Shown here piece by piece: positions 21,266 to 42,904 of a stretch of DNA of 64,000 nucleotides (its first letter is position 1; every line of letters starts with the position of its first letter). The position numbers and the translations under genes are program-made. The notes beneath the pieces are model-generated. The model did no database searches, had not been told where the DNA came from, and saw nothing but the letters and a program-made list of their open reading frames with translations. The DNA is from Elsinoe ampelina (Eukaryota): contig ML992503.1 in assembly GCA_010093995.1 (NCBI GenBank), positions 285,662-349,661 on the forward strand, written 5' to 3'.

Positions 21266-23551
21266 ATGAAGCGCAAGCGTGGTCGCCAGAGCACAAGCTC
21301 GAATGCTGGTTTCGATCCAGTCGGGCTGACACTCGAGCGGCTCAACGGCAGAGACAATCATGAAGTCGAGAATGGAGCAGACACAGCAGATGTGCAGTCT
21401 CGAAGATCGAGCACTGCCAGCGTTCCTGCCAAACGACCATCTGAAGAGGCGAATGCGGAAGAGCAAGGATGGGAGATACAAGAAGACCGGACAGCGAGAA
21501 AAAGACGACGGAAGCTCGAGAAGAACTACCCAGATCTGTCTCATTCTCATCATGCACGCCTCCAATCGTTCGTCAAATTGTCAGACCTGCAGAACCTTGT
21601 GCTATATCTCCTAGCCGATGGATCGTCTCCGCAGTGGGTGTCTGTGCAGAACCACCAGCATATCGACAAGGTCGTGACGCTCATGGTGCCAGGCCTCGAC
21701 GCCGCACTGCTGAATGGGACTGTAGATCTGGGAGTTGATCTCTCCGAGCAGAATGTACTGGATGTTCGAGAGGCAAATTCGAAGGTAGGTAACGACGGCG
21801 AAACGAATGGCTCCAGTTCTGCGCCGAAACAGCAGAAGATGTACATAAAGCCGGATGACTACTACCCATCGAAGCTTGCCCATCAGAAGCTCCCAGAGCC
21901 GCTCAAGCCACTGTCAGGATTGTTCAACCATGTATGGCCTATCAAGACACCCGGCGACCCTCGCCGCATGCATAGTCCCATGTACGGAATGTTGAGTTCT
22001 AGCATCCCCCGATCCAAAGAGGACAAGAACATCAAAGGCGCAAAGCCACCCGCCGAAGCTCGCAGCTGGAAGAACCAACGTACTCCTATCACAGAGTATG
22101 TCATGACCAGGGGCGAGCTCCTGGAGAATGGGTTTGCAGTCCATCCGGCACATCTTGCGACACAAAGCGAGAGAGATATCGAGCTTGCTCGCCGTCATAA
22201 AGCGGTGCAGTCCTCGGCTGATGGCTGGGTGGATCTGCTTCCCGAATTGGCCTCGCCCCTAGACGGTGCCGCTCCCGATCATGACATCGAAGCCGGCTCC
22301 ATTCTTCAAGGTCGGCGTGTCCTCCTCATGGACTGCGAGATGGTCTCTACTGTCACGGATCGATTTGCTCTTGCTCGCATCTCACTTGTGGACTGGGATG
22401 GTGCAGTTGTGCTTGACGAACTTGTCAAACCTCCCGACCCAGTCAAAGATTATCTGACTCCCTATTCCGGCATTACTAAAGCCATGATGGATACAGCTAC
22501 CTTGACTTTGCAAGACATTCAGCGAAAGCTCGAAGAGATTGTCACTCCACAGACCATACTTGCTGGACACAGTTTGGACTCTGATTTCCGTGCCCTCAAG
22601 ATCAGCTACCCTTTCGTCGTTGACACAACGCTACTGTATCCGCATCCAAAGGGTCCGCCGCAAAAGAGCAGCCTCAAATGGTTGACACAGAAGTACCTCA
22701 GCCGGGAGATCCAAGGCAACGCCATCAAAGGCCACGACTCGGTCGAGGACGCAAAGGCAGTATTGGACTTGGTACGACAGAAGTGCGAGAAGGGCAAGAG
22801 CTGGGGCACGGGCGAAGCTAGTGGCGAACCAATTTTCAGACGTCTTGCAAGGACTGGCAAGGTCAAAGGAGACAGAAGTGGCAAAAAGCATGGAGAGCAA
22901 GACGATTGGGAAAGTAGCCCTCGTCGTACGGGAGCAATGGTAGACTGGGTGGGCAACATGCATGGATTCGGCGCTAGTGCCAGTGTGGCGATTAGTTGCG
23001 GGAGTGATGCTGAGGTTGTGGCGGGAGTGTTAAAAGCAGCCGGAGTTGGCTCCAACGATGCCAGCGGGGGTTTACCGGGAGCTGAGAAGGTCCCGGACGG
23101 AGGGTGTGACTTCATCTTCGGCCGGTTGAGAGAACTGGAGTTCGAGCGTGGGTGGTCACCGAGAATCCCCGGTCTTGCTACTTCAGCCGCGAAGCCCGAA
23201 GACAACGACATGCAAGTCGATCATCCGACGAACCACCCTGCGGAGGACGCCGAGGCCAATTTTCCACTACGTGAAGTCGTCGCCCGTACAGTGAAGCACA
23301 TCGAAGAGGTCTTCGACTCGCTCCCCGAACGAACCGCAGTCATCGTCTACTCCGGCTCCGGCGATCCTAGGGAAATGATCAAATACCAGAAACTTCATGC
23401 TCAGCACAAAGAAGAATACTTGACCAAGAAATGGGACGAGCTCGATGTCAAATGGACTGATACAGAAGAGCAAGCTCTAAAGAGAGCGGTCGAGGACGCC
23501 AGGAAGGGAATTGGCTTCATCGGCGTGACTCCAATGAAGAGCACCCGCTAG
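21266..23551 (+). CDS. REX1: DEDDh RNA exonuclease (REX1/RNH70/REXO1-like)
   Basis: 761 aa with exonuclease motifs MDCEM, YLTPYSGIT, GHSLDSDFRAL, DTTLLY and GHDSVEDA. Confidence 0.9.
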   Translation: MKRKRGRQSTSSNAGFDPVGLTLERLNGRDNHEVENGADTADVQSRRSSTASVPAKRPSEEANAEEQGWEIQEDRTARKRRRKLEKNYPDLSHSHHARLQSFVKLSDLQNLVLYLLADGSSPQWVSVQNHQHIDKVVTLMVPGLDAALLNGTVDLGVDLSEQNVLDVREANSKVGNDGETNGSSSAPKQQKMYIKPDDYYPSKLAHQKLPEPLKPLSGLFNHVWPIKTPGDPRRMHSPMYGMLSSSIPRSKEDKNIKGAKPPAEARSWKNQRTPITEYVMTRGELLENGFAVHPAHLATQSERDIELARRHKAVQSSADGWVDLLPELASPLDGAAPDHDIEAGSILQGRRVLLMDCEMVSTVTDRFALARISLVDWDGAVVLDELVKPPDPVKDYLTPYSGITKAMMDTATLTLQDIQRKLEEIVTPQTILAGHSLDSDFRALKISYPFVVDTTLLYPHPKGPPQKSSLKWLTQKYLSREIQGNAIKGHDSVEDAKAVLDLVRQKCEKGKSWGTGEASGEPIFRRLARTGKVKGDRSGKKHGEQDDWESSPRRTGAMVDWVGNMHGFGASASVAISCGSDAEVVAGVLKAAGVGSNDASGGLPGAEKVPDGGCDFIFGRLRELEFERGWSPRIPGLATSAAKPEDNDMQVDHPTNHPAEDAEANFPLREVVARTVKHIEEVFDSLPERTAVIVYSGSGDPREMIKYQKLHAQHKEEYLTKKWDELDVKWTDTEEQALKRAVEDARKGIGFIGVTPMKSTR

Positions 23552-29659: not shown

Positions 29660-30315
29660 TCTGGAGCACTAGCAACCGAGATATGGAGACTCGCGATCGA
29701 GCAAGAATTGCCATGACAATCATATCGGTAAGTCAGGAGCGGGGACCTTGACAGTGATACCCTTACATTAGTTCGGTTGGTGGTCTAGCTGACAAGGTGG
29801 TTGTAGCTTCGTTTCTGCCTTGCATTCGCTAGACGTAATGCTCAGGAACGACGGCCTTGATGTCGAGATCGAGTGAAGTGCGGGTGACACGATATGCGTG
29901 GTCATGACAGCCAGCTCGTTAGTTGTCTAACTATGGATGAGTATTCACTACTCATATAGTATAGGAAGATTGATTTATCCGTAGCTTCCTTGCAGGTTGA
30001 TCGCATCAAGCTGTGGCTTTTTGTGTCAATGTGTGTGCAGGAGTCGAGATGTTCTCGTGCAGTCCAGCGAAGCAGATTCTTCATCGAGCTGCAAATCCAC
30101 AAACGTTTGATCATGAACATCATCACAAACACCGCAAACACTCCATTCTCATCAGAATTCTCCGTTTGGTAACAAAGACAACCGATTTTTCCATGGAATG
30201 ATGTTATCAATTGTCTAGAACAGCGTCTTGCACGCGTTGCACATACTGCTGCGATCCCGCCTGGCGACAGCGGCGTAGACGTCGCCACTCGCGACTTTAC
30301 CTCACAACCCCAACT

Positions 30316-31845
30316 ATGCGCTTCCTCCCCGATCCCAATCTGGGCCATCATCCAGCTCTTCCCGCCGTACCGCCTCCATTGATATCCAGTCCCGTAGCCG
30401 TCGCTCCTATCTTCGGCGGTCTCCTCGGAACCCTCGCCCTACTTGGCACAGCCGTCACCCGCCGAGCGCCATCACTTGCCATCCAAACAGCCGCGACATC
30501 GACATCCATCTTCGGCTTCGCTGCTCTCGCACACAGACTTGAGAAGTCGAGAGCTCACCGCGAGTTTCTCAAGTCAAAGGGCGTCGAGCCACCTTCGCCA
30601 AAGCTGTTAGAACGCTGGACTGAGCTGGATCAGGAGAATGTGCTCTTTGCTGCTGGTCTGCTGGGGGTGATGTTCCGGATAGGTAGAGCCAGACCAGGTG
30701 GATTGTTGAGCAGATGGTGCCGGGTGGAGCCGAAGCAAATTGGCATGGGCACCGAAGTAATAGGAAGCTTCACTTTTGGTACATTCGCCGGCATGGTCGG
30801 TATGTGGGCCAGTCCATTACCGGGTACGCCAAAAGCGCTCCTCGAAATGTGGCGAGATAGACAGATTGCAGCACAATACAGGCATGAGGTCGAGGGATTT
30901 GAGCAGGAGTACGGATGGTCCTTCGGCTTGGGTCGGTTGGTGCGGGATGCGGAGAACCAAGAGCAGTCATCTGGGTCTTCAGAGAGCTTGCAGCGACTAG
31001 GAAATACGTTTGCCTCGTTTGGAGGGCTTGGTGGAGGAGTCTCATCTACAGATGGACCGCATGGAGTTGGTGGTGCGCCCTCGGTATTCTCATCAGATGT
31101 GGATGGCACCGATCCGAAGCCTCATCACAGCGAGGTGATCGATGGTAAACGCATCTTCCTGCCCTCAAGGAATCATGAGTACGAAGCCAAGTCGGTCAAG
31201 GACCTGGAGGACCACTTGTCGGAACTCCAGACTGCTCGAGCAAACTTACTACCTGAGGCCGAACTCATCTGGCACAAAATGGCAGTCATGGAAGGAAAAG
31301 ACCTGCCTCTCTCACAAAATCCAGCCACGGCAGACGAGGTCTTGGAAGATATGAGGATACGAGTGACACTCAGGATCCTCAACAACACCCATTGCTACCT
31401 CTGGAGCCAGATCAGCGACATTGACTGGATGATCATGGACACGAACAAGCAGATCCTTCAGTGGAAAGCCAAGCAAGCAAACCGAACGTGGGAACCTGGC
31501 ATGTCTCACAAGACGAAAGATCCTATCCCTATGACTACCATTGACTTCCTCGCAATCACATTGGCCCAAAGGCGAGTGGAGCAAGCCTTGATGGAAACAC
31601 AGATGCTCGGCGTACAATCTCAACTGGACAAGCTGCGCAAGAGCTTATCCCCAGATACACAGAACAGAGGCTGGAACCAAGACGCAAGTCGTCAGGAGCT
31701 AGACGATCTTGAACGCCTTGTCTTGACCAAAGGCAGCATCGATGCCTTTGTCAAGGCCTGCGAAGACCTGATCAACGAACTTGGAAAAGGTAAGATCGAC
31801 GTCGAAGAAGTCCTGAAGAAGTGGACGGAGTCGGGAGATATTTGA
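30316..31845 (+). CDS. Uncharacterised membrane + coiled-coil protein, family member 1
   Basis: ATG 30316, 509 aa, intronless. N-terminal hydrophobic helices, the motif FLKSKGVEPPSPKLLERWTELDQENVLFAAGLLG and a helical C-terminus. Confidence 0.75.
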   Translation: MRFLPDPNLGHHPALPAVPPPLISSPVAVAPIFGGLLGTLALLGTAVTRRAPSLAIQTAATSTSIFGFAALAHRLEKSRAHREFLKSKGVEPPSPKLLERWTELDQENVLFAAGLLGVMFRIGRARPGGLLSRWCRVEPKQIGMGTEVIGSFTFGTFAGMVGMWASPLPGTPKALLEMWRDRQIAAQYRHEVEGFEQEYGWSFGLGRLVRDAENQEQSSGSSESLQRLGNTFASFGGLGGGVSSTDGPHGVGGAPSVFSSDVDGTDPKPHHSEVIDGKRIFLPSRNHEYEAKSVKDLEDHLSELQTARANLLPEAELIWHKMAVMEGKDLPLSQNPATADEVLEDMRIRVTLRILNNTHCYLWSQISDIDWMIMDTNKQILQWKAKQANRTWEPGMSHKTKDPIPMTTIDFLAITLAQRRVEQALMETQMLGVQSQLDKLRKSLSPDTQNRGWNQDASRQELDDLERLVLTKGSIDAFVKACEDLINELGKGKIDVEEVLKKWTESGDI

Positions 31846-32111
31846 GCTTCATTTCAACCCGCAAGATAGCGAGGAGTAAATGCCGGACAGGCCGAGCAAA
31901 GGGGCTCGACGCTAGATACCCACGAAAAATGCTTGGTTGCCTTCTTTGCACAGCTGCATAACGAGCGCCGTGCAAGCGCGGGTGAAATCGACCAGGGTCC
32001 GATCAACACTCCGTGCCGCATGCACCGCCCACGTCTTGTGTCACACATCAAGATATTCCTTTCGCACTCTGCTCATCATGTCTGTCTTGTGCCATTCAAT
32101 TCTGTTCCGGA

Positions 32112-33111
32112 ATGCGGTTCCTCCTCGATCCTTTCACGGGTCTCCATCCTCAGTACTACGCCCCTCCTCCTCCGCTCCTGTCGCCTCTTGCCACAATTCC
32201 TATCCTCGCTGGTCTTGCAGGGTTACTGGTCCGTACTTCAGGCACATTACTCTTGAGAGGTCGACCTTTCAGCGCCGCCAAACTCACTGGATCTGTCGCT
32301 GCTGGTACGCTGATAGCACAGATTCCCATCGTGGCCTTCATCGATTATCGAAAGTCTGCATTTCTAGCTGAGCGGGGCAATCACTGCCCCGCGTCGCAAA
32401 TTGATAGAGCGTTATGGGCGATGGGACATGGATGACAATGTCCTTGTTGGCGGGATTCTGGGAATCGCGTTGGGACTGGGTACCACAAGGTCTGTGACCA
32501 CGTCTTGGATCGGAAAGCTCAACGCCCGCTTCGGAATCTTGTCAAGGACTCTGGAGAGGAGAATTGAAGCAGGCTTGGACCCACGTAACCAGATGGGAAG
32601 AATCAGGACCACGTTGGCGGCGGGGTCCTATGGGAGTTTGTTTGCGGTAGTGCCGCTTTTGCTCCCAGACCTAGTTCCCATCGGCCCTTCACCAGACGAA
32701 TGCAAAGATCCATCGTCTCGTACCGCACGACCATGCTGAAGAACATGCGCTCCAACTTCGATCTCGACCTCGTAAAACTCAGCCGCATGCTCGAACAACA
32801 AGGCATTATCCCAGCGGATGAGGACCGAGTCGTGCGACCCACGTTCTTCGCCCAAGACATCGACCTGCCTTCACGCACCAATCTTGACCTTGCAAATGCT
32901 AGCGTGGGCGAATCTTCAGGCTTTGACGGAGCATCAACGGGGATTACGACGGGATATGGCGCCGGCGGAAGCCAAATCGTGGCAGGAGGAGGTGGGCGAG
33001 TTGATGGCGAGGTTGGAGGCGCCGTTGGGAGTGATCGTGCTGCTTAATCATATGAAAGCCACGGTTGAAACGGAGAGGCTGATGGGGAGGATGCGTGCTG
33101 CGGGAGGTTGA
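32112..33111 (+). pseudogene. Frameshifted member 2 of the same uncharacterised family
   Basis: Starts MRFLLDP like member 1 (MRFLPDP). The family motif FLAERG/ITAPRRKLIERYGRWDMDDNVLVGGILG is split by an extra base at 32379-32380. Further frame changes occur at about 32700 and about 32890. Confidence 0.7.
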
Positions 33112-33296
33112 GGGGTGGAGGAGCATGGGTTGGGAACCGCGGGGGGAAAACGGTTGCATGTGAGGAACAGACTGGACCGAAGAGCAGACTATGGTAGGTA
33201 AAGACTGTGCAGCGAAACCCAGCAATCAAAGGAATAGACTCGGGAGCGTCCTCCTTTGTCTTGACACATCTTCACTCCTTCCCATCTTGTCTTCGC

Positions 33297-34227
33297 CTAA
33301 GCGGAGAAACCATAGCTGCTCGCGGTGTAGAACCAATCACTGCCCCTCCACTGACCCACTTCGGTAGCATAGCTGCTGTCCAAGACACGGTCGTACAAGT
33401 GACAGAACAGCTGGTCCAAGGTATTCTCGTTGTTGATGAACTGGTAGTACGTGCTGAAGAAGTTGCACGGCTTCTCGTCCGGCTGACCAGCTGCCCAGTT
33501 GGTGTGCTCAGTACACTTCGCCGCACAGTCGGCTGCGTTCAGGACGGACTGGGAGTAGTATTCTCTGACTCTGTATTGAGGGGCAAAGATGGCGCCGGAG
33601 CTGAAGTACTGGCGGGTGGAGTAGCCTGGAGGAGGGACGATGCCAGTCTTGACGTAGCCGTTAGACCCGGCGATGACGATCTGGAATTGCTGGTTGGTGT
33701 AGCCGACGTTGGTGAGGGAGTCGAGAGTGAGAGGACCGCCCCAGAGGACGCACTTGATGTAGGCTACGCCGTCTGGGTTGGGACATGCGGCGCCGGGAGT
33801 AAGGCTGGGTCCGCGTTCGAAGAGGATGTTGAAGCCCTGGCATGTTGGCTTGCCAGCACATGCGGCAGCACAGGCTGGAACGTCATAGGAAGTAAGCAGA
33901 GTATGGCCCAAGTAGTCATTGCCACTAAGCATTGTCAACAAGAGTGTAACATGCCGTGTTGGTGTCTGCTTACTTCTTGGATGCCTGCTGGTTTGTAAAG
34001 ACAGAGGCGAAGCCGGATGGGACAGCTGCTCCGTTGGCAGCGACAGCGAACGAAGTCGCTCCGGTAAAGCCTGCAGCCGAGGTTGCGTCGAAGGCGTACC
34101 CAGAAACTCCGGGAGCTTCAGGGTCACAAGCAGCACGCTTGTCGAGGAAGGATGTTGGGGCAGCTGCTACGAGAGCAGACAAGCCGGCGAGAGCCGAAAG
34201 AGCGGATAGAGCGTGCATCTTGTGCAT
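33297..34227 (-). CDS. Secreted Cys-rich protein with PAN/Apple-like domains, 2 exons
   Basis: Signal peptide plus a KR (Kex2) site, intron 33925..33973, and two CAAxC...C..FN/FF modules (YDVPACAAAC...CQGFNI...IKCVLWG...IAGSNGY; ADCAAKC...CNFF...CHLY). Confidence 0.8.
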
Positions 34228-35910
34228 CTTGAAACGAGGAGGGACTGACAGATGTTTTGAATCTGCTAGAGTCTGGAGAAGAAGGTGCTGGGAGCTGATG
34301 AATCTCTACCTACCTGGGGATGACCGCCCTTTTATAGACCAGATGTACGCAGCAGCGCTCGAAGAAACTCTTGTCATCTGCCTCAAGATCGATAGCTGGA
34401 TCTAGATCGAGGATGTGGTCGCGATGGTCGACAAAAACTCACCGCCGTTGTGCTGGCGCGGGATGGAAGCGAAGGGGCGTGCAGTCTTCATTGCCATAGG
34501 ATTGCATGGTCCGCGATGGCTCGCCAATGAGGATCCCAGGCATAACCATGACCTCGCGGGATCCTGACCATGCTGCATCTCAACAACATCTCAAAGCGGA
34601 CGATTGTCTCGGATTACCTGGTCTGCAAGTCGAGACAAAGCCATGATGGGGGGTGGTCCAGTGTCGCCAGTGGATGGAACTTGAGGAGTCATGGAGGCGT
34701 AGAAACGTTTGTGTCTGGCTTGGACTATTGAGGAAGAGAGGAAGTAGCCTGGTCAATGCAGTGTGGAGAGCTGATTCTAGACTCCCACGGCATGTACAAG
34801 CCGACGTGCAAATTGAGTTGCACGACGAGAACTCGGACTTGATTAATACTCATGTCGCTGCCGCGCATTAGGTCAAAATGAGAGAGTGATTCATCTGGCC
34901 ATTTGACGTGTCTCCATCATGTTGGCGTAATCGACAAGGTGGTCTGTACAATGAAAGACGTGCTAAGGCATCGAAGTGCAGGTGCGCGAGGAAAGCAGAG
35001 ACACGGGGGATCCAAGACGATCAGCCTGCATGCATCCATGTCTTAAGCGAGCGAAGCATGAGCCTCGCAAGTGGAGACTGGCTCTGATGGTGTAGCACAT
35101 ATCCCACGAAGTAGCAAGGTGTGGTGGGGACACGACCCTGGCGCATGAGCGTCTGCCATGAGTTACGTCGAGATTGCGCAGTGATAGACTCACAGATACC
35201 GTATGTCTCGATCGAGACGAAAAAGGCCCTTCGATCACGTTAAGGCCTCGATTCAAACATTATGTGTGTATGGCTGTGCGCGAAGTATTCGTGGACTGTC
35301 GTTCAAGACCTTGTATGCTGTGTCGGGAGGCCCGTCAAGTACGTCCCGTGCCGAGGAAGTGCCAGGGACCGGGTAAGGCTAGATCAATCTGGCATCAATG
35401 ATCCTGCCGAGTCCAGCCACAGCACCCTCAAAGTCATTGGCAACTCCCTCCGCTCCGAGACTCGATCATACTCGCCCTTTTCCCGGCCTGGGCGTCCTCT
35501 TCTTGGGTCCTCTTCTTGGCCTTCTTAGTCATAGAAACAGATCCAGATGACGCCACAGCGCTATCGAAGCGGAGGCGATGGTGATTCGAAGAGCACATAG
35601 GGCTTTGCATAGTCACATCCTGAGCATGAAATGGTGCGGCTGAGAAATGTGTAGCGTAGGATTGCGGGGAAGCAGTGTTCCGGACGGACGGTTACCACAC
35701 CACCATCGGCATCGGCCAATGTGTGTCTATGCATCCATCCTGGTCATTGGATACCTGCAGCGTGGGTGTCGGTTGATGGCGTTTCTTTCTTTGTCTGCCT
35801 TTGGGCAAGCCGCCAATGCCTCGCAAGTTGCATGATCGCCAGGGACGCCATCCACCATTTTCCTTTCCGGGACAGGTCTCGTGTTCAGACACAATGGACG
35901 GTTGATAATT

Positions 35911-35931
35911 GTGACCCTTGTATCAAAACTC
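35911..35931 (+). repeat. Left terminal inverted repeat GTGACCCTTGTATCAAAACTC
   Basis: Exact reverse complement of 40907..40927. Confidence 0.95.
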
Positions 35932-36265
35932 CTCAGGCCCAACCCCTTTTCGGCGTCACCCTTCTTAATGCGGAGAACTCCACCAATTCTTCATGTAATT
36001 TTATATAATTAATACTATTAAATTTCTCTCGTCAAGACGAGTTTATGAATATATAAATTATATAGTTCAGTAGTCGTGGTAGTAGTAATATTATTGCTGT
36101 AGTAACCGCCCTAGGGGGGCAACTAGGCAAGTCGAGTACTATAATATTAACCTCTGTCAATTCGAGCCGTACGTATACCTTATGCCTTTTTTAGCCCCTT
36201 AGTACATATTTAGATCGAATACCTTACTATCCTCTTATAAATTCGATTATATAATTACTATTAGT

Positions 36266-37085
36266 ATGTCTAGGAAAGGCCTCTATAATATAGTAGTAAG
36301 GCAAGCACGTTAGTAAGCCGAGCAAGCGCAGGTCGCTACTTAGGCCGTAGCATAAGTAGCAAAGACTATAGAAGAGTAGCAAAGACTATAAGAGTAAGTA
36401 CTAGATTATCTAATCTTAGAGTTGTAATTTCGCCTACAATTCTAGTAATTTAGAGGCTAACTATTATAGCTTTAATAACAAATAGTGCTATTCGACTACC
36501 ACGAACGATTAAGACTTCTAGCACGTTACAGACGACAAGTAGTAAAGCCTCTATCTTGCTCTAGAAGCTATAGAAGCTAGCGACAATACTAAGGCAAAGA
36601 AGATTGCCTTAATAAGCCTCCGCTATGTCGTTTACGCCGGCGAGATTATAGAGATAGAGAAGGGAGAGCTAGCACTAGCACTGTGCTACTAGTGTAGTTA
36701 TAAGGCTAAGGGGAATAATAGAGTAGATAGAGACTTAGAGGTTTATTACGTTTAGAAGGAGAAGAGTAAGAGTAAGTCGTATAGATACTATGTAAGGGAG
36801 AGTAAGGATCATTACTCGGCGCTAGCTAGAGAATCGTCGTCGGAATTGCAGGTTAAATCGCAAGATCTAGCGGAGTTAAAGACACGCTATAAGCTTCTAG
36901 AAGCTGTCTTATTAAAAGCCGTAGATACTATCTAGTAGTAAGAGAAGAGGATCCGCTAGCTAGAGGGCGCAGTCTTTAGTAAGAAGGAGAAGGAGGAAGG
37001 GGTTAATAAGATAGAGAGGGTAGAGGAGAGAGAGGTAGTAGTAGAGGATAAGGTGCTACTAGAGAATAAGGCCGAGGAGTTATAA
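36266..37085 (+). pseudogene. RIP-destroyed element gene A (Cys-cluster + coiled coil)
   Basis: ATG 36266 and a GTAAGT...GCTAAC...TAG intron. One continuous frame broken only by TAG/TAA at likely Gln/Trp codons, ending in an E/K-rich tail. Confidence 0.55.
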
Positions 37086-37149
37086 TTATAAACCTATAAT
37101 CATTAGCGAGGCGTTTAGTTGTATTATAATACCTAATAGAGCAAGGCAT

Positions 37150-38940
37150 GCCTTTTTGACTGTTAATACTACTCCTTATCGAGTCTTCTTAGTTGGCCTA
37201 GTCCTTCTCCTACTCCTCTATATACTAACTAACTACCTCTTTTGCTCGGCACTAGTTACAAAGTCTTCCGGCTAAATAATATCTACATCTAGCGGTTGGT
37301 CTTAATAAGTTAAAGAAGCCTAGCGCCTTTCCGGAGCTTAAGATTGCCGTGTTATAGTAGTAGAAGACTTTTTAGCCCCTTAAGTTGTTGCTAGTAGTAG
37401 GTTAAATTCAACCGACCTAAAGACGTCTCTATAGTCGGAAGGGGTTAGAGTAGGTAAAGCACTCTAGCTACGCCCCTTTAAAGCCTCTAGTGGATTAAAC
37501 CATCGAAACTCGCTAGTTAACAAGTCTATAATACATATTAAGGTTAGTAGTTAGTATAGATCGATCGTCTATAACGTCTAACTACGCTTATTCTTAATAG
37601 CTACCTCGGCGGTAGGTAGACTAGTTATTACAGCTGTTAGTGCTTGTATAAATAATAGAGGACTATTAGCATTATAATTAATAAAGTCTACTTCGAATTA
37701 AGTAACGCCTCTAAGAGAAGACTTACGCTATAATTTAGAGAGTATAAATCGCTACTCGATTTGCTAAAGCCTTACATTAATAACAGATTATATATGCGCG
37801 TAATATGCCGCGTTAGTCTCCTTAATTAAGCGAACTAGATTGTTAGCTAGATTATAAGATATATCGCGAGATAGATCGTAAGATAGATTACGAGATAAAT
37901 TATAAGCTAGAGTTGTACGAGATAGAGGCTAAGTTAGAGGCTAAGATAGACGCTAAGATATAACACTAGTTCGAGGTTGCAATTTACGCGCGATTAAGCT
38001 ACAATTCGACGCTAGGGGATAGCTAGTCTTCGCACGTTTATAGAAGATAGAAACCTCCTTAATAGCTTAGTCTAATATCTCGTCGGTTTTGTATTTATAA
38101 ACTAGCTTAATGTACCTCCTTTTGTTTAATCCGGCGCCGCTAGTGCTAAAAGCCTTAAGTAGCTCTTCTAGAGAGTCGCGGTAGAGTATATACTACATTA
38201 GTATAATTAGCCTATTATCTATATTAAAGTCGTTAACGAGGTAGTAATCTACGTAACTATTAAATATCTCTTTACTATACCGCTCTAGATTAAAGAAGGT
38301 CTAGTTCTCTATATAGAAAGCGATTAAATCGCATAAGCGATACTAATAGTTCGAATCGCTAGGGGCAATCGTAGGTAGAGTAATATCCGGCGCGAGAGTA
38401 CTCTAGAGCGTAACAATATATTGTCTCTTATAGACTATAACTCTATTATAGTTTAAACTACGCGTAATCTTAAAGATGTCGACGAGAATATACGTTGACG
38501 CCTTCTAACTCTTTACGTGCTAAGTTAGTAGCCTTATAGCTTTAGATTTTAAGGTAGTAGTATAGGTAGCTACTAGCAGCTTAAAGCTAGAGCGATATAG
38601 ATTAGCGGTAGTTATAGGACAGCTAGATTACTAAGGCGGCGGCAGTAACGACAAGAGCTATATAGTCGAAGTTAGAGGGACTAGAGGAGGTAGTATAACT
38701 AGGGTAGGTCGACGCGAGTCGCTAAGAATTATAGAGGTAACTCGCTTATAGGCGACTAATAGCTAACGTAACAACGAGGCTATCGATTCTCGTTAAAAAG
38801 GCCTCCTATTACTACGATAGTAAGGATTAACTATATTGCACTAGCCGCATCTAGTATATCTCTCTAGTATGTCGACGTAGCTAAGAGACATTAAAGCCTT
38901 AGTGTAGAGGGTAATCTAACGATTAATAATTAAAGCTATA
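37150..38940 (-). pseudogene. RIP-destroyed element gene B (low-complexity, Pro/Ser-rich after de-RIP; boundaries approximate)
   Basis: Long minus-strand frames interrupted by RIP-type stops, with 12-bp periodic repeats at about 37860-37960. Confidence 0.4.
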
Positions 38941-39199
38941 ACAACTAGAAAGCAAAAGGGATAAGATTAGAAGGATAAACAAGTAGGGGAAACGCGTTTT
39001 TATAATAGTAATTACTGCGGTAAGTTGCTAAGTCATTAGTATAATTCACTTAGTAATTCTAGTAGCCTTCTCCCCCTAAATACGTCGAAATTCGTCCGAT
39101 AGCATAAAAGACCCTAGCTAATTATCTTCGTACGCGTATAGCCTTATTAATTTAGTTAGAAGAGGCTTAGCTCCTATAGCAATATAAAATCGAGCCTAG

Positions 39200-40546
39200 T
39201 TATAGAGAAGCTAATATATAGCTATATAAACTTTGTTACTATTGTCGAAGATAGTATAACTATTAAAATTAGCAAATTCTCTAGCTATAAGTATAGTTTT
39301 ATACCACTAAAGAGTATTAGCTAGTAGATATTCGTTAGGATTTAGAAATTTGTCAATCTGCAATTCGGTAGCGATTTACACTATAATTCGTATATTAAAA
39401 TTTTATAAGTTTGCCTAGTACTCTTCGATTAGTAGTAGCGGTACTTTAACTCTAGAGTAAACTCCTCTACGGCGCTCTAGATAGCTATAATTCAGCTCTA
39501 GCACTCTAGAGACTGTCTATAGCCTCCTCCTCGTCTAATTCCGGATAGCTCTATAATTGTAAGTCTAGGTAAAGGTCTCTATCTCTTGTCGAATAATTAG
39601 TATATAGACGGCGAGAAAGGTAACTCTATTAGGTAAGGAGCTTACTATAAATCCTTAATCGGCTATAAGATCGGTGAAGTAAGCTCTCTAAGGATCTAGC
39701 TACCTTGCCTACTAACTCTAGTATACCTTAATCTACTAGTTCGAACGAGAGGTACTATACCGGAAGTAATCCTCGAAGTGTAAGGGGGCTAAGTAATTAC
39801 CTCTAGGTGGCCGAATAGCTTAACTTAGTTCGTAATAGAGGTTAGCGACTTAGATAGTCTCTGTACTACAATCTATAACGAGTTAGTGTAGCATTATACT
39901 ACTAGCTACAATCGCTGCTAGGTATTAGACTACTACGGATTATTAAGTATATCTAGAGATACCGTAGTAGATCTAGATAACCTATCGTAACTACGTATCG
40001 ATTGCTCTATATATCTATAGCCCCTAATGCTCGAATTTGCAATAAGTATCTATATACTATACGAAATCTAGACTAGTAGAATAATTAACTAGCTAGTTGA
40101 CTCGAAGGCGTCGTCTACGATGCTTAAAGTCCTCTAGATAAAGGAAACGAGATATAGTAGTTATATAGTAACTACGTGTAGTATTAGCGATTCTCTCGGC
40201 AATTCTACCCCCTTAAATCGCACTTATATTCCAACAAGATTATACTACTACCTTATGTAGGTATATATTATACTTCGTCTATATACCTTAATATTGTCTT
40301 ACTTATACTTATACTATAATGCCTTAAGTATTATAGTATCTCTATGCTCCTTATCGCTCTTACTTAACTCTACCTACTTCTAGAGGCCTATATTACAGCA
40401 GATGTGTCGGAGGCCTTTAAGGCTAAGTTCGTAGCTGTCCTCTTAGAGAAGCTTAAGTATATAGCTATCTATAATACAGTAGTCGAAGAAGAGCTACTAG
40501 ATGCGCTCTCGTAGCTTAGGGGTGTTATTAGTCTTAGGGCAAGCTA
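39200..40546 (+). pseudogene. RIP-destroyed element gene C (unknown globular protein; boundaries approximate)
   Basis: Plus-strand protein-like frames (e.g. LLEAYITADVSEAFKAKFVAVLLEKLK) with RIP-type stops and a GTAAGT donor near 39559. Confidence 0.4.
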
Positions 40547-40906
40547 ATACTCCCTAATCCTTTAAGCGTCTTACTAGAGTAATATAGCTTATTATAATAC
40601 TATACTCTTAAAGAATCTTAACTACGTTGTCTCTAGTATAGCGCTCTAAGGTTATCTAGTCGGTAATACTCTCTTACTAGCTGTCAATGTTAATCCCTAG
40701 TCGAGGCATTATTTATTCGGGCAGAGGAAAAGTTTAAAGAGCAATTACGTAAGGATAGTTATAGTTATAATTATGAAAATTAAAGAAAATAATAGCGCTA
40801 ATAGTTCTCTACCACTTACTGTTGATCTGATGATTTAATAATCAGTGTTGGTGAAGTTGGCCATTTTAGGAAGGATAATAATCCTTATTGAGAAGTGGAG
40901 TTGGAA

Positions 40907-40927
40907 GAGTTTTGATACAAGGGTCAC
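40907..40927 (-). repeat. Right terminal inverted repeat
   Basis: GAGTTTTGATACAAGGGTCAC, the reverse complement of the left TIR. Confidence 0.95.
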
Positions 40928-41509
40928 AATTTACACCCATACAATGCCCCATGTCCGTGGAGCTTAGTAACAGTATCCTTGCCGTGCTCGTCTGAGACAG
41001 AGTCGCAGGCCAGCCAGCTTCGATGAATGTATCTTGAAGGTCATTGTCGCCATCTCAGCCTCACTTCGGACCGGGACAACGGCCAGTGCGCACGTCTGGC
41101 TCATCGGCAGTTTGGTCCGAAGAGATGAGAGGTCGTGCGGACGAGAAGTCTCTCGGTAGGCATGACGGGCACTGGCGCAGGTGCCAGTGGTACAGCCGAT
41201 AGTCGCGAGCAGTGTGGTATCTTGCATCAGAGCGGTGTCCAAATATTCGTGGAGAAGCGCGGCAGGATGGCAGCTATTGTTGCAACTCTCATCGAGTTGA
41301 TCATAATCTGCATTTGGGATTGTGATTGGTGGGAGACAGGCGTGAGCTCCGATGAAAGTCCATAATCGCAATCTCCGCGCCGCCCTTTGACGTGTCGTGC
41401 ATTGGCGCAGCAAGGGCGCTTACTGAGTCATGGCAGTGCTCCAGTATGATATAAGATAGTTATGTGAATCCGTTCTCCGGCCTGATCTCCACTTTGCCAA
41501 CCGCTCGCG

Positions 41510-42904
41510 ATGCGTATCGCACCTAGTCCCCACGAGGGTCTCTGCGACGAGATCCCCGAGACGCCACCGGCGGTGAGCACCTCGTCCATTCTGCGCGCGT
41601 GTGCGGCCAGTGGGACTATTTCGTTCAGCATCACCGGCATAATGACCATCCTCGGAGCGCATCGAAGTGGCGCACACACCCGCCTCACTGCTGTCAGCAG
41701 TATTCTCCTCACGGGGGTATTAATTTGGGACCGAACACGGACGGATCGCGAGGAGCGCTCGTTCCTCAGGTCGCGTAACATCGAAATACCCCCACGCAGA
41801 TGGATCGATCGACTGCAACACCTTGACGGTGACGGTATTCTGTTGTGTAGTGGCCTTCTCGGTGTAGCGACAAGGCTGGGAACCCCAAAGTCCCTCTTCA
41901 GCCCGCTGCATAAGCGTTACATCAACTCCCTGATTTCCAACGACATTATCAAGGCAAACCAAAGCCCCCTGCGTGCAGGTCGCGTGGTGCAGGCGACCAG
42001 GTGGGAAACGGGTCTCGCAGCCTTCAGCTATGGCACGGCTCTCGCTCTCGGGTCTCTGTTTTTCTTGACCCCGAAAAATGTATTTGCCATTCCGAGTATG
42101 ATCGGCCATGCCCAAGGAGATGTGCGCCGCTTAGCGCGAGCTGGGCTCACAATCAACGATGTCTCGGAGATCCCATCTATGGCTTGTGAACAACCTCAAA
42201 CAGATATGCGCATGCCCGAGCCTTTGGAACAAGATTATCTGCCGAGTAATGGTCCGGACAACATGGATATGGACCCAAAGGATGCTCGAAGCGGTTCGTC
42301 CGGACATGCAAGATCGAGGCTGTTCCGCATTCTGCGGCGCGTCACTCCAGATAGCGTCTCCAACGACGAAGTCAATGCAATGATGATCGAGGGTCGAATT
42401 CCGCGCCCAGAGGCCCTCACAAAGGAGTTCGATCGCCTTGTTGAAGTTCAGACTATGGTTGGTAGATTGAGAAGAAACAAAGGCCGGTGTATGGAGAATT
42501 GGTTCATGAGGCAGGATGACACTCCAGCCAGGCTCGCACTGCTATCTTTAATCGAACAAAGTGTGCGGAACGACATAGCTGAGATCACAGCGCTGATCGC
42601 CAAAGCCAAGAGGTCTCCAAGTCGAGTGGCTGTCCCTGTCTCTTCTGGTTTCACTGTCAAGGAGGTATTGGAACCGCAGGGTCCACCTGGGCAATTGACC
42701 ATTGAGCGTGTTCTGAGTTGGACCTTGGCAGAATGTCGACGGAAGATCGAGAAGACGTCGAGTTATCCATCGGACGAGGATCGAGCATCAGCTGTACGGG
42801 CGCAAGCCATTGCTGATGAGAGTGTCCAATTGAGGTTCGAGTTGAATCATTTCAGCATATTCTTCGAGTTCTTCTGGCTGAAAAATCTTCTGGGCAGGGA
42901 CTAG
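41510..42904 (+). CDS. Uncharacterised membrane + coiled-coil protein, family member 3
   Basis: 464-aa intronless ORF. The motif FLRSRNIEIPPRRWIDRLQHLDGDGILLCSGLLG aligns by eye with members 1 and 2. Confidence 0.75.
   Translation: MRIAPSPHEGLCDEIPETPPAVSTSSILRACAASGTISFSITGIMTILGAHRSGAHTRLTAVSSILLTGVLIWDRTRTDREERSFLRSRNIEIPPRRWIDRLQHLDGDGILLCSGLLGVATRLGTPKSLFSPLHKRYINSLISNDIIKANQSPLRAGRVVQATRWETGLAAFSYGTALALGSLFFLTPKNVFAIPSMIGHAQGDVRRLARAGLTINDVSEIPSMACEQPQTDMRMPEPLEQDYLPSNGPDNMDMDPKDARSGSSGHARSRLFRILRRVTPDSVSNDEVNAMMIEGRIPRPEALTKEFDRLVEVQTMVGRLRRNKGRCMENWFMRQDDTPARLALLSLIEQSVRNDIAEITALIAKAKRSPSRVAVPVSSGFTVKEVLEPQGPPGQLTIERVLSWTLAECRRKIEKTSSYPSDEDRASAVRAQAIADESVQLRFELNHFSIFFEFFWLKNLLGRD

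Follow-up and report, generated by a model that had tools for sequence, protein, structure and literature searches.

NDUEG9 is described in PMC10884005. The passages of that paper devoted to it present a transmembrane subunit of complex I that has an intermembrane space domain, lacks a matrix domain and wedges the Euglena respirasome; they describe it as Euglena-specific. A second point of reference is the domain DUF1757, for which a literature search under DUF1757, PF08560 and IPR013869 returned no functional data. Tim17, Tim22 and Tim23 have four helices rich in small residues, with an R..D..G..G pattern before helix 3. Four-helix proteins of this composition are also found in peroxisomes.

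The window analysed here, a 64,000-nucleotide stretch of Elsinoe ampelina DNA, carries three co-oriented genes with homologous N-terminal domains (Table 1). Gene 1 is very probably the ancestral, normally single-copy member of a Dothideomycete family and genes 2 and 3 its old duplicates, a judgement that covers architecture and history. What the protein does, and in which membrane, is argued below with much less confidence.

Table 1. Features of the locus, in window coordinates
Feature	Positions	Strand	Remarks
RNase_T exonuclease gene	21266..23551	+	separated from gene 1 here; adjoins the family gene head-to-head in outside loci
Spliced GT..AG intron, 5' leader of gene 1	29728..29806	+	contig X3
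Gene 1, intact family member	30316..31845	+	509 aa
Gene 2, first piece	32112..32435	+	107-aa ORF, family-homologous until the frame break near 32379
Gene 2, second piece	32380..32739	+	other frame; carries the rest of the conserved motif with helices 3 and 4; stop at 32739
Gene 2, probable eroded 3' part	32700..33111	+	115-aa ORF (32700-33047) whose codon use is coding-like; an overlapping frame stays open to 33111
PAN-domain ORF, unrelated	33297..33932	-	between gene 2 and the transposon; PAN_1 E 5e-6
RIP-mutated 5.0-kb element	35897..40941	.	terminal inverted repeats; between genes 2 and 3
Gene 3, open frame	41510..42904	+	464 aa; family membrane domain (1-~190) and ~270-aa tail

The three genes and their family

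Homology among the genes is established for the N-terminal ~125-185 residues only. Gene 1 aligns with gene 3 at 30% over 128 aa (E 5e-12) and with gene 2, whose break was bridged by an X, at 36% over 131 aa. A profile of 64 family members, from which gene 1 and its closest orthologues were left out, gave 291 bits for gene 1, 86 for gene 3 and 69 for gene 2. Full shuffles (1000) reached at most 7.7, 5.1 and 4.2 bits, respectively, and block shuffles (1000) at most 35.6, 20.5 and 19.9 bits. With scores above every shuffled control the three are true relatives, as an earlier note on this DNA had proposed. The MR..P.P start, Pro-rich arm and hydrophobic helices that it listed were found in the genes. 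The motif that it quoted is present when spacing is relaxed by +/-1 only; the literal pattern matches 0/3 genes. The helical C-terminus does not belong among the common homologous features, the C-domain profile giving 143 bits for gene 1, a non-significant 0.4 for the gene 3 tail and 0 for gene 2. The gene 1 family corresponds to no Pfam family, in line with the earlier note, which could not assign one.

The gene 1 family has 103 representatives at E<=0.001. Among 105 stored proteins, 65 have both domains, 30 the C-domain only, 9 the N-domain only (all <=289 aa) and 1 neither. Organism names were obtained for 10 of 30 looked-up representatives; all ten are Dothideomycetes, a class to which numerous crop pathogens and extremotolerant black fungi belong. 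One copy of the family gene was found in each of the outside loci (11/11), which are partly dependent (several look closely related) and two of which have full 10-kb flanks. Six of the 11 carry a gene with a homologue in this window: the exonuclease in four, where it lies head-to-head with the family gene, PEX6 in two, an FHA kinase in one and an FAD monooxygenase in one. Searches of the E. ampelina genome with five different family proteins found members at this locus only.

The genes had been called intronless, which is right for the coding parts of genes 1 and 2, where contig X3 has 0 gaps, but not for the leader of gene 1, where an intron is spliced. A loose end of the contig maps to 29697-29726, immediately 5' of GTAAGT, and the contig resumes at 29806. 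The leader is ~665 nt long and holds 15 ATGs. Transcription of genes 1 and 2 is indicated by this spliced contig and by low-depth contigs of X4 and X6; no run found in the search was recorded as RNA. Compared with the E. batatas orthologue, gene 1 differs at 2/185 residues in the N-domain and at 10/80 in the linker. On these counts the membrane domain appears to be under purifying selection. Gene 1 is invariant in three other runs.

Gene 2 is not the single intact gene that it had been taken for. Its first ORF stops after 107 aa, and the assembled reads confirm the frame break. The quoted motif straddles this one-base break, and the third piece lies in yet another register. The second piece alone scores 29.6 bits on the family profile; the 3' part gave no significant match to the family C-domain (205/2000 shuffles score as high). 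The break is no assembly slip, since contigs X1 (depth 188, possibly the DNA's source) and X3 (another sample) carry the window's sequence there. It is absent in contig X6. Rescue by an intron was also rejected, the spliced contig running without a gap over 29806-33266; X3 and X4 both keep the sequence of a candidate GT..AG intron at 32720-32782.

Relative to the window, X4 differs at 0/1909 nt over gene 1 and 12/575 over gene 2 (Fisher p 2e-8), and X6 at 0/1407 and 7/313 (Fisher p 6e-6), the gene 2 contigs having a depth of 3.4-4.8 at which errors are possible. One gene 2 variant site is common to both. An indel private to the X4 contig and an altered conserved acidic motif in the X6 contig fit relaxed selection on gene 2. 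A-to-I editing is not favoured as the source of the differences: A>G accounts for 9 of the 14 substitution sites listed, but these have mixed neighbouring bases, and indels and transversions are present as well. A search of the assembly for a second gene 2 copy found none. Gene 2 has very probably become a transcribed pseudogene.

Gene 3 retains the family motif. Codon use is coding-like in either half of its frame, and a frame of this length that stays open with such codon use argues against simple decay. A weak trace of the C-domain at the expected place in its tail was not taken as proof of a remnant (58/2000 shuffles as high; hhalign probability 0.4%); for helix 2 alone, 31/2000 shuffles score as high. 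No relatives of gene 3 were found among 8000 candidates of 255-812 aa. Still open and fast-evolving, gene 3 may be decaying or repurposed.

The expansion is old, as the earlier note held. Genes 2 and 3 are both on long branches in the tree. Grouping them in one clade with gene 1 and its 95%-identical orthologue is rejected (p-AU 0.006), and with it a recent origin of the duplicates. The statement that the copies diverged and escaped RIP also stands, DNA likeness between the genes amounting to just 20-22-nt chance matches and a RIP signature being absent. The description as a three-gene cluster is right in that the genes are co-oriented at one locus, but gene 2 has no intact ORF, and the genes are not strictly adjacent, as the PAN-domain gene and the transposon split genes 2 and 3. 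The 5-bp target duplications of the element (CAATG, 35892-35896 and 40942-40946) are intact and its copies elsewhere are 91-92% identical, so it was inserted much later than the gene duplication. A six-frame scan of the element found no Pfam family. Judged by sequence, gene 1 is the sole intact member, and genes 2 and 3 arose from it long ago by local duplication, with the membrane part alone still recognisable. Together with the frameshift in gene 2 this speaks against an immunity cluster and for a common course of duplication followed by decay. The cluster itself is therefore modest, an old local duplication with one probable pseudogene; the family consists of conserved two-domain membrane proteins of Dothideomycetes that belong to no Pfam family.

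Structural models and their nearest matches

The gene 1 protein has a Pro-rich N-arm (1-25) and four hydrophobic helices rich in G, A and S (~26-48, 53-73, 106-123 and 144-165), followed by a low-confidence linker (219-260), a beta-hairpin (270-285), a long helical hairpin (294-387) and two further long helices. The N-domain was modelled with pLDDT 94.2 and pTM 0.86. In composition (36-45% G/A/S in family helices) and in having both termini on one side of the model, the four presumably membrane-spanning helices resemble Tim17/22/23. With a mean KD of 1.0-1.2 they are weakly hydrophobic, and some may therefore be amphipathic instead of spanning the membrane. Across the family, the N-arm has a median net charge of 0, loop 1-2 one of +2 (n=61) and loop 3-4 one of +4 (only n=13).

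The best match among 48,161 chains is 8iuf_E9 of the Euglena respirasome (Z 7.4, rmsd 4.6, 127 residues aligned; next Z 3.9), which at 11% identity is below the tool's safe level for helical bundles. From its chain name, we take E9 to be NDUEG9. The alignment spans residues 1-173 of the model and 8-165 of the chain; a second fold search gave the same top match, and several weaker matches are respiratory-complex chains. Foldseek found nothing at E<=0.001 in the PDB (full model and N-domain) or among viral structures. No sequence link joins the N-domain to E9 or any solved chain, its profile giving 4 matches at E<=10 among PDB sequences, 0 of them from 8iuf. A shared fold by itself shows no function. 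The C-domain hairpin matches PspA (4whe, Z 8.7, 112 residues) and CHMP4B (Z 8.0), and many cytosolic coiled coils equally (Z 7.5-8.9).

Features from a language-model atlas point weakly to DUF1757 (PF08560). The top three named clusters carry it (scores 0.84-0.86, 169-179 shared features, family share 12-73%), and 10/10 of the best named matches share this family; scores below 0.9 are leads only. The DUF1757 HMM found no match in the window proteins, nor in 23 N-domains at E<=10, and DUF1757 is not among the best 25 of 47 Pfam families listed for 68 full members. Among 8000 candidates searched with a profile there were no short relatives, and a degenerate pattern found 0 DUF1757 proteins in the E. 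ampelina genome. The single candidate in that genome (E 0.47) was rejected because it coincides with an unrelated ORF that we take to encode a carbohydrate kinase.

Membrane, role and comparison with known systems

An organellar membrane role, suggested earlier, fits the model and its best structural match. The favoured reading, held tentatively and at somewhat less than even chances, is a four-helix accessory or scaffold protein of the mitochondrial inner membrane with a helical-hairpin tail, accompanied by two degenerating duplicates. The gene 1 protein would have no cleavable presequence and would insert its four small-residue helices into the inner membrane. The two short Arg-rich loops would lie on the matrix side, and the N-arm, the motif loop and the C-terminal hairpin in the intermembrane space. 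Its role may be non-enzymatic, that of an accessory, assembly or wedge protein serving respiratory complexes or cristae in the manner of Euglena NDUEG9, and the conserved W/H/E/D face of the hairpin may bind a partner.

The same history could have unfolded in another membrane, of the peroxisome, ER or lipid droplet, with the protein a scaffold or tether whose hairpin faces the cytosol. This is a less likely reading, still to be taken seriously. The N-terminus is not presequence-like, given its neutral median charge, and the hairpin resembles cytosolic coiled coils just as well; against this, the one structural match that stands out is to a chain of the mitochondrial inner membrane, and the weaker matches include respiratory-complex chains.

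A different fate for the duplicates is improbable, namely that gene 3, and formerly gene 2, were repurposed as partners or competitors of gene 1, keeping the membrane domain so as to enter the same complex with a different tail, and that divergent gene 2 alleles are under balancing selection. The open frame of gene 3, its codon use and its motif would agree with this, as would a variable gene 2 beside an invariant gene 1. However, the gene 2 differences come from low-depth contigs, one with its own indel and the other with an altered acidic motif, gene 3 has no relative among the 8000 candidates, and both genes are on long branches. The most far-reaching reading, likewise improbable, would make NDUEG9, DUF1757 and the gene 1 family one ancient four-helix mitochondrial fold. 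Dothideomycetes would have fused an intermembrane space hairpin to it, giving an unrecognised subunit that belongs to the respirasome or shapes cristae. In the present lineage, duplication of the membrane module would have yielded two components that tune the complex, gene 3 as a partner with a swapped tail and gene 2 as a truncated copy, polymorphic and transcribed together with gene 1.

The birth-and-death cluster of conflict, immunity or pore-forming proteins that the earlier note envisaged is very unlikely. A local triplication with long branches, a broken copy and divergent gene 2 alleles would suit it, as would two dynamin-like GTPase paralogues near the locus. But outside this locus the family gene is single-copy with conserved neighbours, gene 1 is strongly conserved and the transposon arrived late. 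The dynamin-like link was discarded, such pairs also occurring on contigs C17 and C7, on which the search gave no family member, and being absent from the two long outside loci. No HET, NACHT, HeLo or gasdermin-type Pfam domain or adjacent NLR was found among 28 window ORFs scanned, nor any HET, HeLo, gasdermin-like or NLR-linked family among those listed for family members. No pore-forming or cell-death fold stood out among the structural matches listed, a listing that need not contain every related fold.

The least credible reading makes the membrane domain a strongly diverged member of the Tim17/Tim22/Tim23 family that acts in protein import. In its favour are four G/A-rich helices, an R..D..GG..G pattern between helices 2 and 3 and a loose PRAT motif in 23/68 members. 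Against it are a strict motif in 0/68, an HMM (PF02466) that finds the genome's own Tim genes and misses this locus, the 23 N-domains and the window proteins, and a profile probability of 2.5% against the genome's Tim23-like ORF, aligned on a Pro stretch only. No entry titled as a TIM complex is among the best 50 matches of the two fold searches, a listing that need not contain every related family. A Pro-rich structured N-arm and a C-terminal hairpin are not known as Tim17 features.

The useful result is a family with a confident membrane-domain model and one stand-out neighbour in a respirasome. Should the link to 8iuf_E9 prove true, it would give a first functional handle on DUF1757-like proteins, put the Euglena-specific label of NDUEG9 in doubt and make the family a candidate accessory subunit in Dothideomycetes.

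Compared with known systems, the C-terminal hairpin of gene 1 aligns with the alpha1-alpha2 hairpin of PspA/ESCRT-III. This match has no sequence support, and prefoldin, SMC, IpaB and designed coiled coils match equally well, which makes the hairpin probably a generic one. DUF1757 supplies the nearest named clusters, including one of 180 aa from Ascomycota, and its domain size matches. The DUF1757 clusters listed are 180-229 aa long, whereas in the gene 1 family the membrane domain is fused to a hairpin domain. The chain taken to be NDUEG9 gives the best structural match over the whole membrane domain, is of similar size and likewise has membrane helices with its soluble parts on one side; it is a stand-alone chain of ~165 residues, whereas gene 1 has ~325 further residues.

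Relatedness and age of the three genes

Genes 1, 2 and 3 (table), which an earlier note had taken for paralogues, were compared with each other and with a wider family. Genes 1 and 3 align with 30% identity over residues 1-125 (E 5e-12) and nowhere else. A profile of 64 family members, with gene 1 and its closest orthologues left out, gave 291 bits for gene 1, 86 for gene 3 and 69 for gene 2, the last read with an X at its break. The best of 1000 full shuffles reached 7.7, 5.1 and 4.2 bits for genes 1, 3 and 2, and the best of 1000 block shuffles 35.6, 20.5 and 19.9 bits. Scores this far above the shuffled controls mark the three as real paralogues. A common helical C-terminus had also been claimed. 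With a profile of the C-domain, the helical-hairpin half of the gene 1 family, however, gene 1 scored 143 bits, gene 3 0.4 and gene 2 0; homology of the C-terminal halves is not demonstrable. Nor is gene 2 an intact gene, as its reading frame ends early and the motif attributed to it is divided between two frames near 32379.

In a 50-row tree of the N-domain, the predicted four-helix membrane domain, genes 1-3 share a group with proteins from Elsinoe, Sphaceloma and Myriangium (support 94/86, not starred). Gene 1 joins its orthologues (100/99), and genes 2 and 3 lie on long branches (1.99 and 1.86) with their exact position unsure. In a 21-row tree, where the long branches weaken the topology tests, a recent origin (a clade of gene 1, its E. 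batatas orthologue, gene 2 and gene 3) was rejected with p-AU 0.006. The tests did not reject an origin at the root of the Elsinoe/Sphaceloma group (p 0.36), nor a sister relation of genes 2 and 3 (p 0.41). No DNA similarity above 20-22-nt matches was found among the three genes. The tandem expansion is thus old, and the genes are free of RIP as proposed, with composite indices of -0.9 to -1.2 against +1.0 to +1.7 in the element at 36-41 kb. This element has two further full-length copies at 91-92% identity, each with its own 5-bp duplication (three full copies in total), and no Pfam match. Older relatives (~68%) lie on two other contigs of the genome, C5 and C9. The element was inserted long after the genes diverged and its position is therefore incidental, contrary to the suggested birth-and-death beside a transposon. 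The cluster consists of genuine paralogues, partly mis-described, with an ordinary duplication history.

Features of the locus in window coordinates
Feature	Start	End	Strand	Remarks
Dynamin-like GTPase gene	17614	20540	-	intron-containing; paralogue of and collinear with the next dynamin-like gene, 23-35% identity
RNase_T exonuclease gene	21266
Dynamin-like GTPase gene	26299	29298	-	intron-containing
Degenerate 22-nt tandem repeats	29519	29606		divergent promoter of dynamin-like gene and gene 1
Gene 1 5' leader	29573	30315		spliced, ~665 nt, 15 upstream ATGs
Gene 1 ORF	30316		+	509 aa
Gene 2 ORF	32112		+	107 aa
Gene 2 differences in X4 and X6	32319	33048		~2% of sites, mainly A>G, with indels; gene 1 identical
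Cys-rich PAN-domain ORF	33297	33932	-	a relative with 70% identity lies at another place on this contig
RIP-mutated element	35897	40941		imperfect terminal inverted repeats, perfect 5-bp target duplication
Gene 3 ORF	41510		+	464 aa

Transcription and the state of gene 2

Genes 1 and 2 are transcribed. Contig X3, assembled from a sequencing run, starts with 154 letters, the final 30 of which map to 29697-29726, directly before GTAAGT; it picks up again at the AG at 29805-29806. A leader intron upstream of gene 1 is spliced in X3, which is therefore RNA-derived. X3 continues gap-free to 33266 and spans genes 1 and 2, a single contig not being proof of one transcript. Two other run contigs, X4 and X6, cover parts of both genes at low depth. 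The upstream ATGs in the leader could limit translation of gene 1.

Gene 2 is broken. The break near 32379 is also present in contig X1, which may be the source of the window DNA, and in X3, which comes from another sample. The second piece meets a stop at 32739, and codon use shifts into a third register past ~32700. Over the gene 1 region X4 is free of differences from the window in 1909 nt, yet it differs at 12 of 575 positions in gene 2; for X6 the counts are 0 in 1407 nt and 7 of 313, the gene 2 contigs of both having a depth of 3.4-4.8. One difference site is common to the two. X6 is without the 32379 break, but its conserved acidic motif is changed, and X4 has its own, different indel. 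This contrast between the genes possibly reflects diverged haplotypes of a gene in decay, an extra, unassembled copy in the X4 and X6 strains, or balancing selection.

The family and its genomic setting

Gene 1 belongs to an unnamed, conserved family with a two-domain architecture and single-copy residence. Its nearest named protein is from Elsinoe batatas (95% identity), followed by Sphaceloma murrayae (53%). With the RIP signature of the repeats and the spliceosomal introns, these matches mark the window as fungal and suggest an Elsinoe-like Dothideomycete. A profile built from gene 1 plus three relatives retrieved 103 representatives at E<=0.001. The 105 proteins collected include 65 with both domains, 30 with the C-domain only, 9 with the N-domain only (99-289 aa) and one with neither; incomplete gene models probably account for many of the single-domain rows. 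Organism names accompany 10 of 30 looked-up representatives (Taxawa, Cryomyces, Aureobasidium, Myriangium, fungal sp. 11243, two Elsinoe, Venturia, Boeremia and Patellaria), all annotated as hypothetical and all, we take it, Dothideomycetes. As the other 20 are without an organism, the range may be wider. Pfam searches found no consistent family in 68 members (at most two members each among the 25 of 47 weak families shown) or in 23 N-domains.

Scanning metagenomes with an alignment of 10 sequences gave 11 loci; several look closely related, so they amount to fewer than 11 independent cases. Each locus carries one family gene, with full 10-kb flanks in L036 and L040 only. In four of them the family gene is head-to-head with the RNase_T exonuclease found at 21266 in the window, the start codons being 285-455 nt apart. 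Three more window genes are among its neighbours, PEX6 in two loci, the FHA kinase in one and the FAD monooxygenase in one, and at least one window-matching neighbour is found in 6 of the 11. At L040:9971-11516 the family gene runs over three frames (introns or frameshifts); the other full-length loci are single ORFs. In the E. ampelina assembly itself (28.3 Mb, 161 contigs), queries with five family proteins hit members at the gene 1-3 locus only, in searches that score few candidates. Given one copy with shared neighbours outside and members only here in its own genome, gene 1 is the resident that is conserved, and the threefold arrangement is specific to this lineage.

One dynamin-like gene is head-to-head with the exonuclease and the other with gene 1. 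The exonuclease/family-gene pair, adjacent in outside loci, is therefore split here. Contigs C17 and C7 carry more dynamin-like tandem pairs.

Predicted structure and role

The full gene 1 model has a pLDDT of 86.8; its linker, residues 219-260, is of low confidence. The C-domain is modeled as a beta-hairpin and a long helical hairpin; its matches are tied at Z 7.5-8.9 (designed bundles, SMC, prefoldin, IpaB, PspA, CHMP4B) and appear generic. The N-domain modeled alone (pLDDT 94.2, pTM 0.86) has a structured Pro-rich arm and helices 26-48, 53-87, 106-123 and 144-165. Its best match among 48,161 chains is 8iuf_E9, chain E9 of a Euglena respirasome structure, over the whole domain (rmsd 4.6, 127 aligned, 11% identity), at Z 7.4, a range that, as the tool warns, common helical arrangements can produce. 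The second-ranked chain has Z 3.9. Foldseek gave nothing at E<=0.001, and among its re-examined candidates 8iuf_E9 was top again. From the chain name we take it to be NDUEG9. Independently of the fold search, the language-model feature comparison (Atlas) put clusters that carry DUF1757 closest to the N-domain (0.84-0.86), which is no more than a lead. The fold lists also contain complex I chains d and b, presumably NDUFC2, matching helices 1-2 or helices 3-4 (Z 3.2-3.8). These matches hint at an internal two-helix repeat, too weakly to rely on.

The four helices are weakly hydrophobic and 36-45% G/A/S, loops 1-2 and 3-4 are Arg-rich and the N-arm is uncharged. Because of these features and the positive-inside rule, the gene 1 protein would be internally targeted to the inner membrane, with these two loops on the matrix side and the N- and C-terminus outside the matrix. 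Searches revealed neither an enzyme family nor a nucleotide-binding one, so a role as scaffold, assembly or wedge factor at respiratory complexes or cristae would tentatively be the likeliest mechanism.

Action of the gene 1 protein in another organelle is a less probable alternative. That genes 2 and 3 are repurposed partner copies is improbable. The range of the structural Z, the gene 2 contrast in X4 and X6 and a gene 3 frame open for 464 codons with coding-like codon use speak against the preferred reading. Yet none of 8000 candidates was a relative of gene 3; its own sequence is missing there too, so annotation gaps may lie behind this result. The layout of gene 3, an N-domain with a long unmatched tail, occurs in 0 of the 105 family proteins collected. 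Where the second hairpin helix would be expected, gene 3 has a faint trace of it, but 58 of 2000 shuffles scored as high and hhalign gave 0.4%. Conflict or pore proteins, as the earlier note suggested, are a very improbable reading of the trio. Least probable is a diverged Tim17 as the membrane domain, sequence tests of the N-domain for Tim17, like those for DUF1757 and E9, being all negative.

The mitochondrial link of the gene 1 family is a plausible lead. The layout predicted for the gene 1 protein is that described for NDUEG9, a transmembrane subunit of complex I that is called Euglena-specific and has a domain in the IMS but none in the matrix (PMC10884005). NDUEG9 is described as ordered in the respirasome only, wedging complex I against III2+IV there (PMC10884005).
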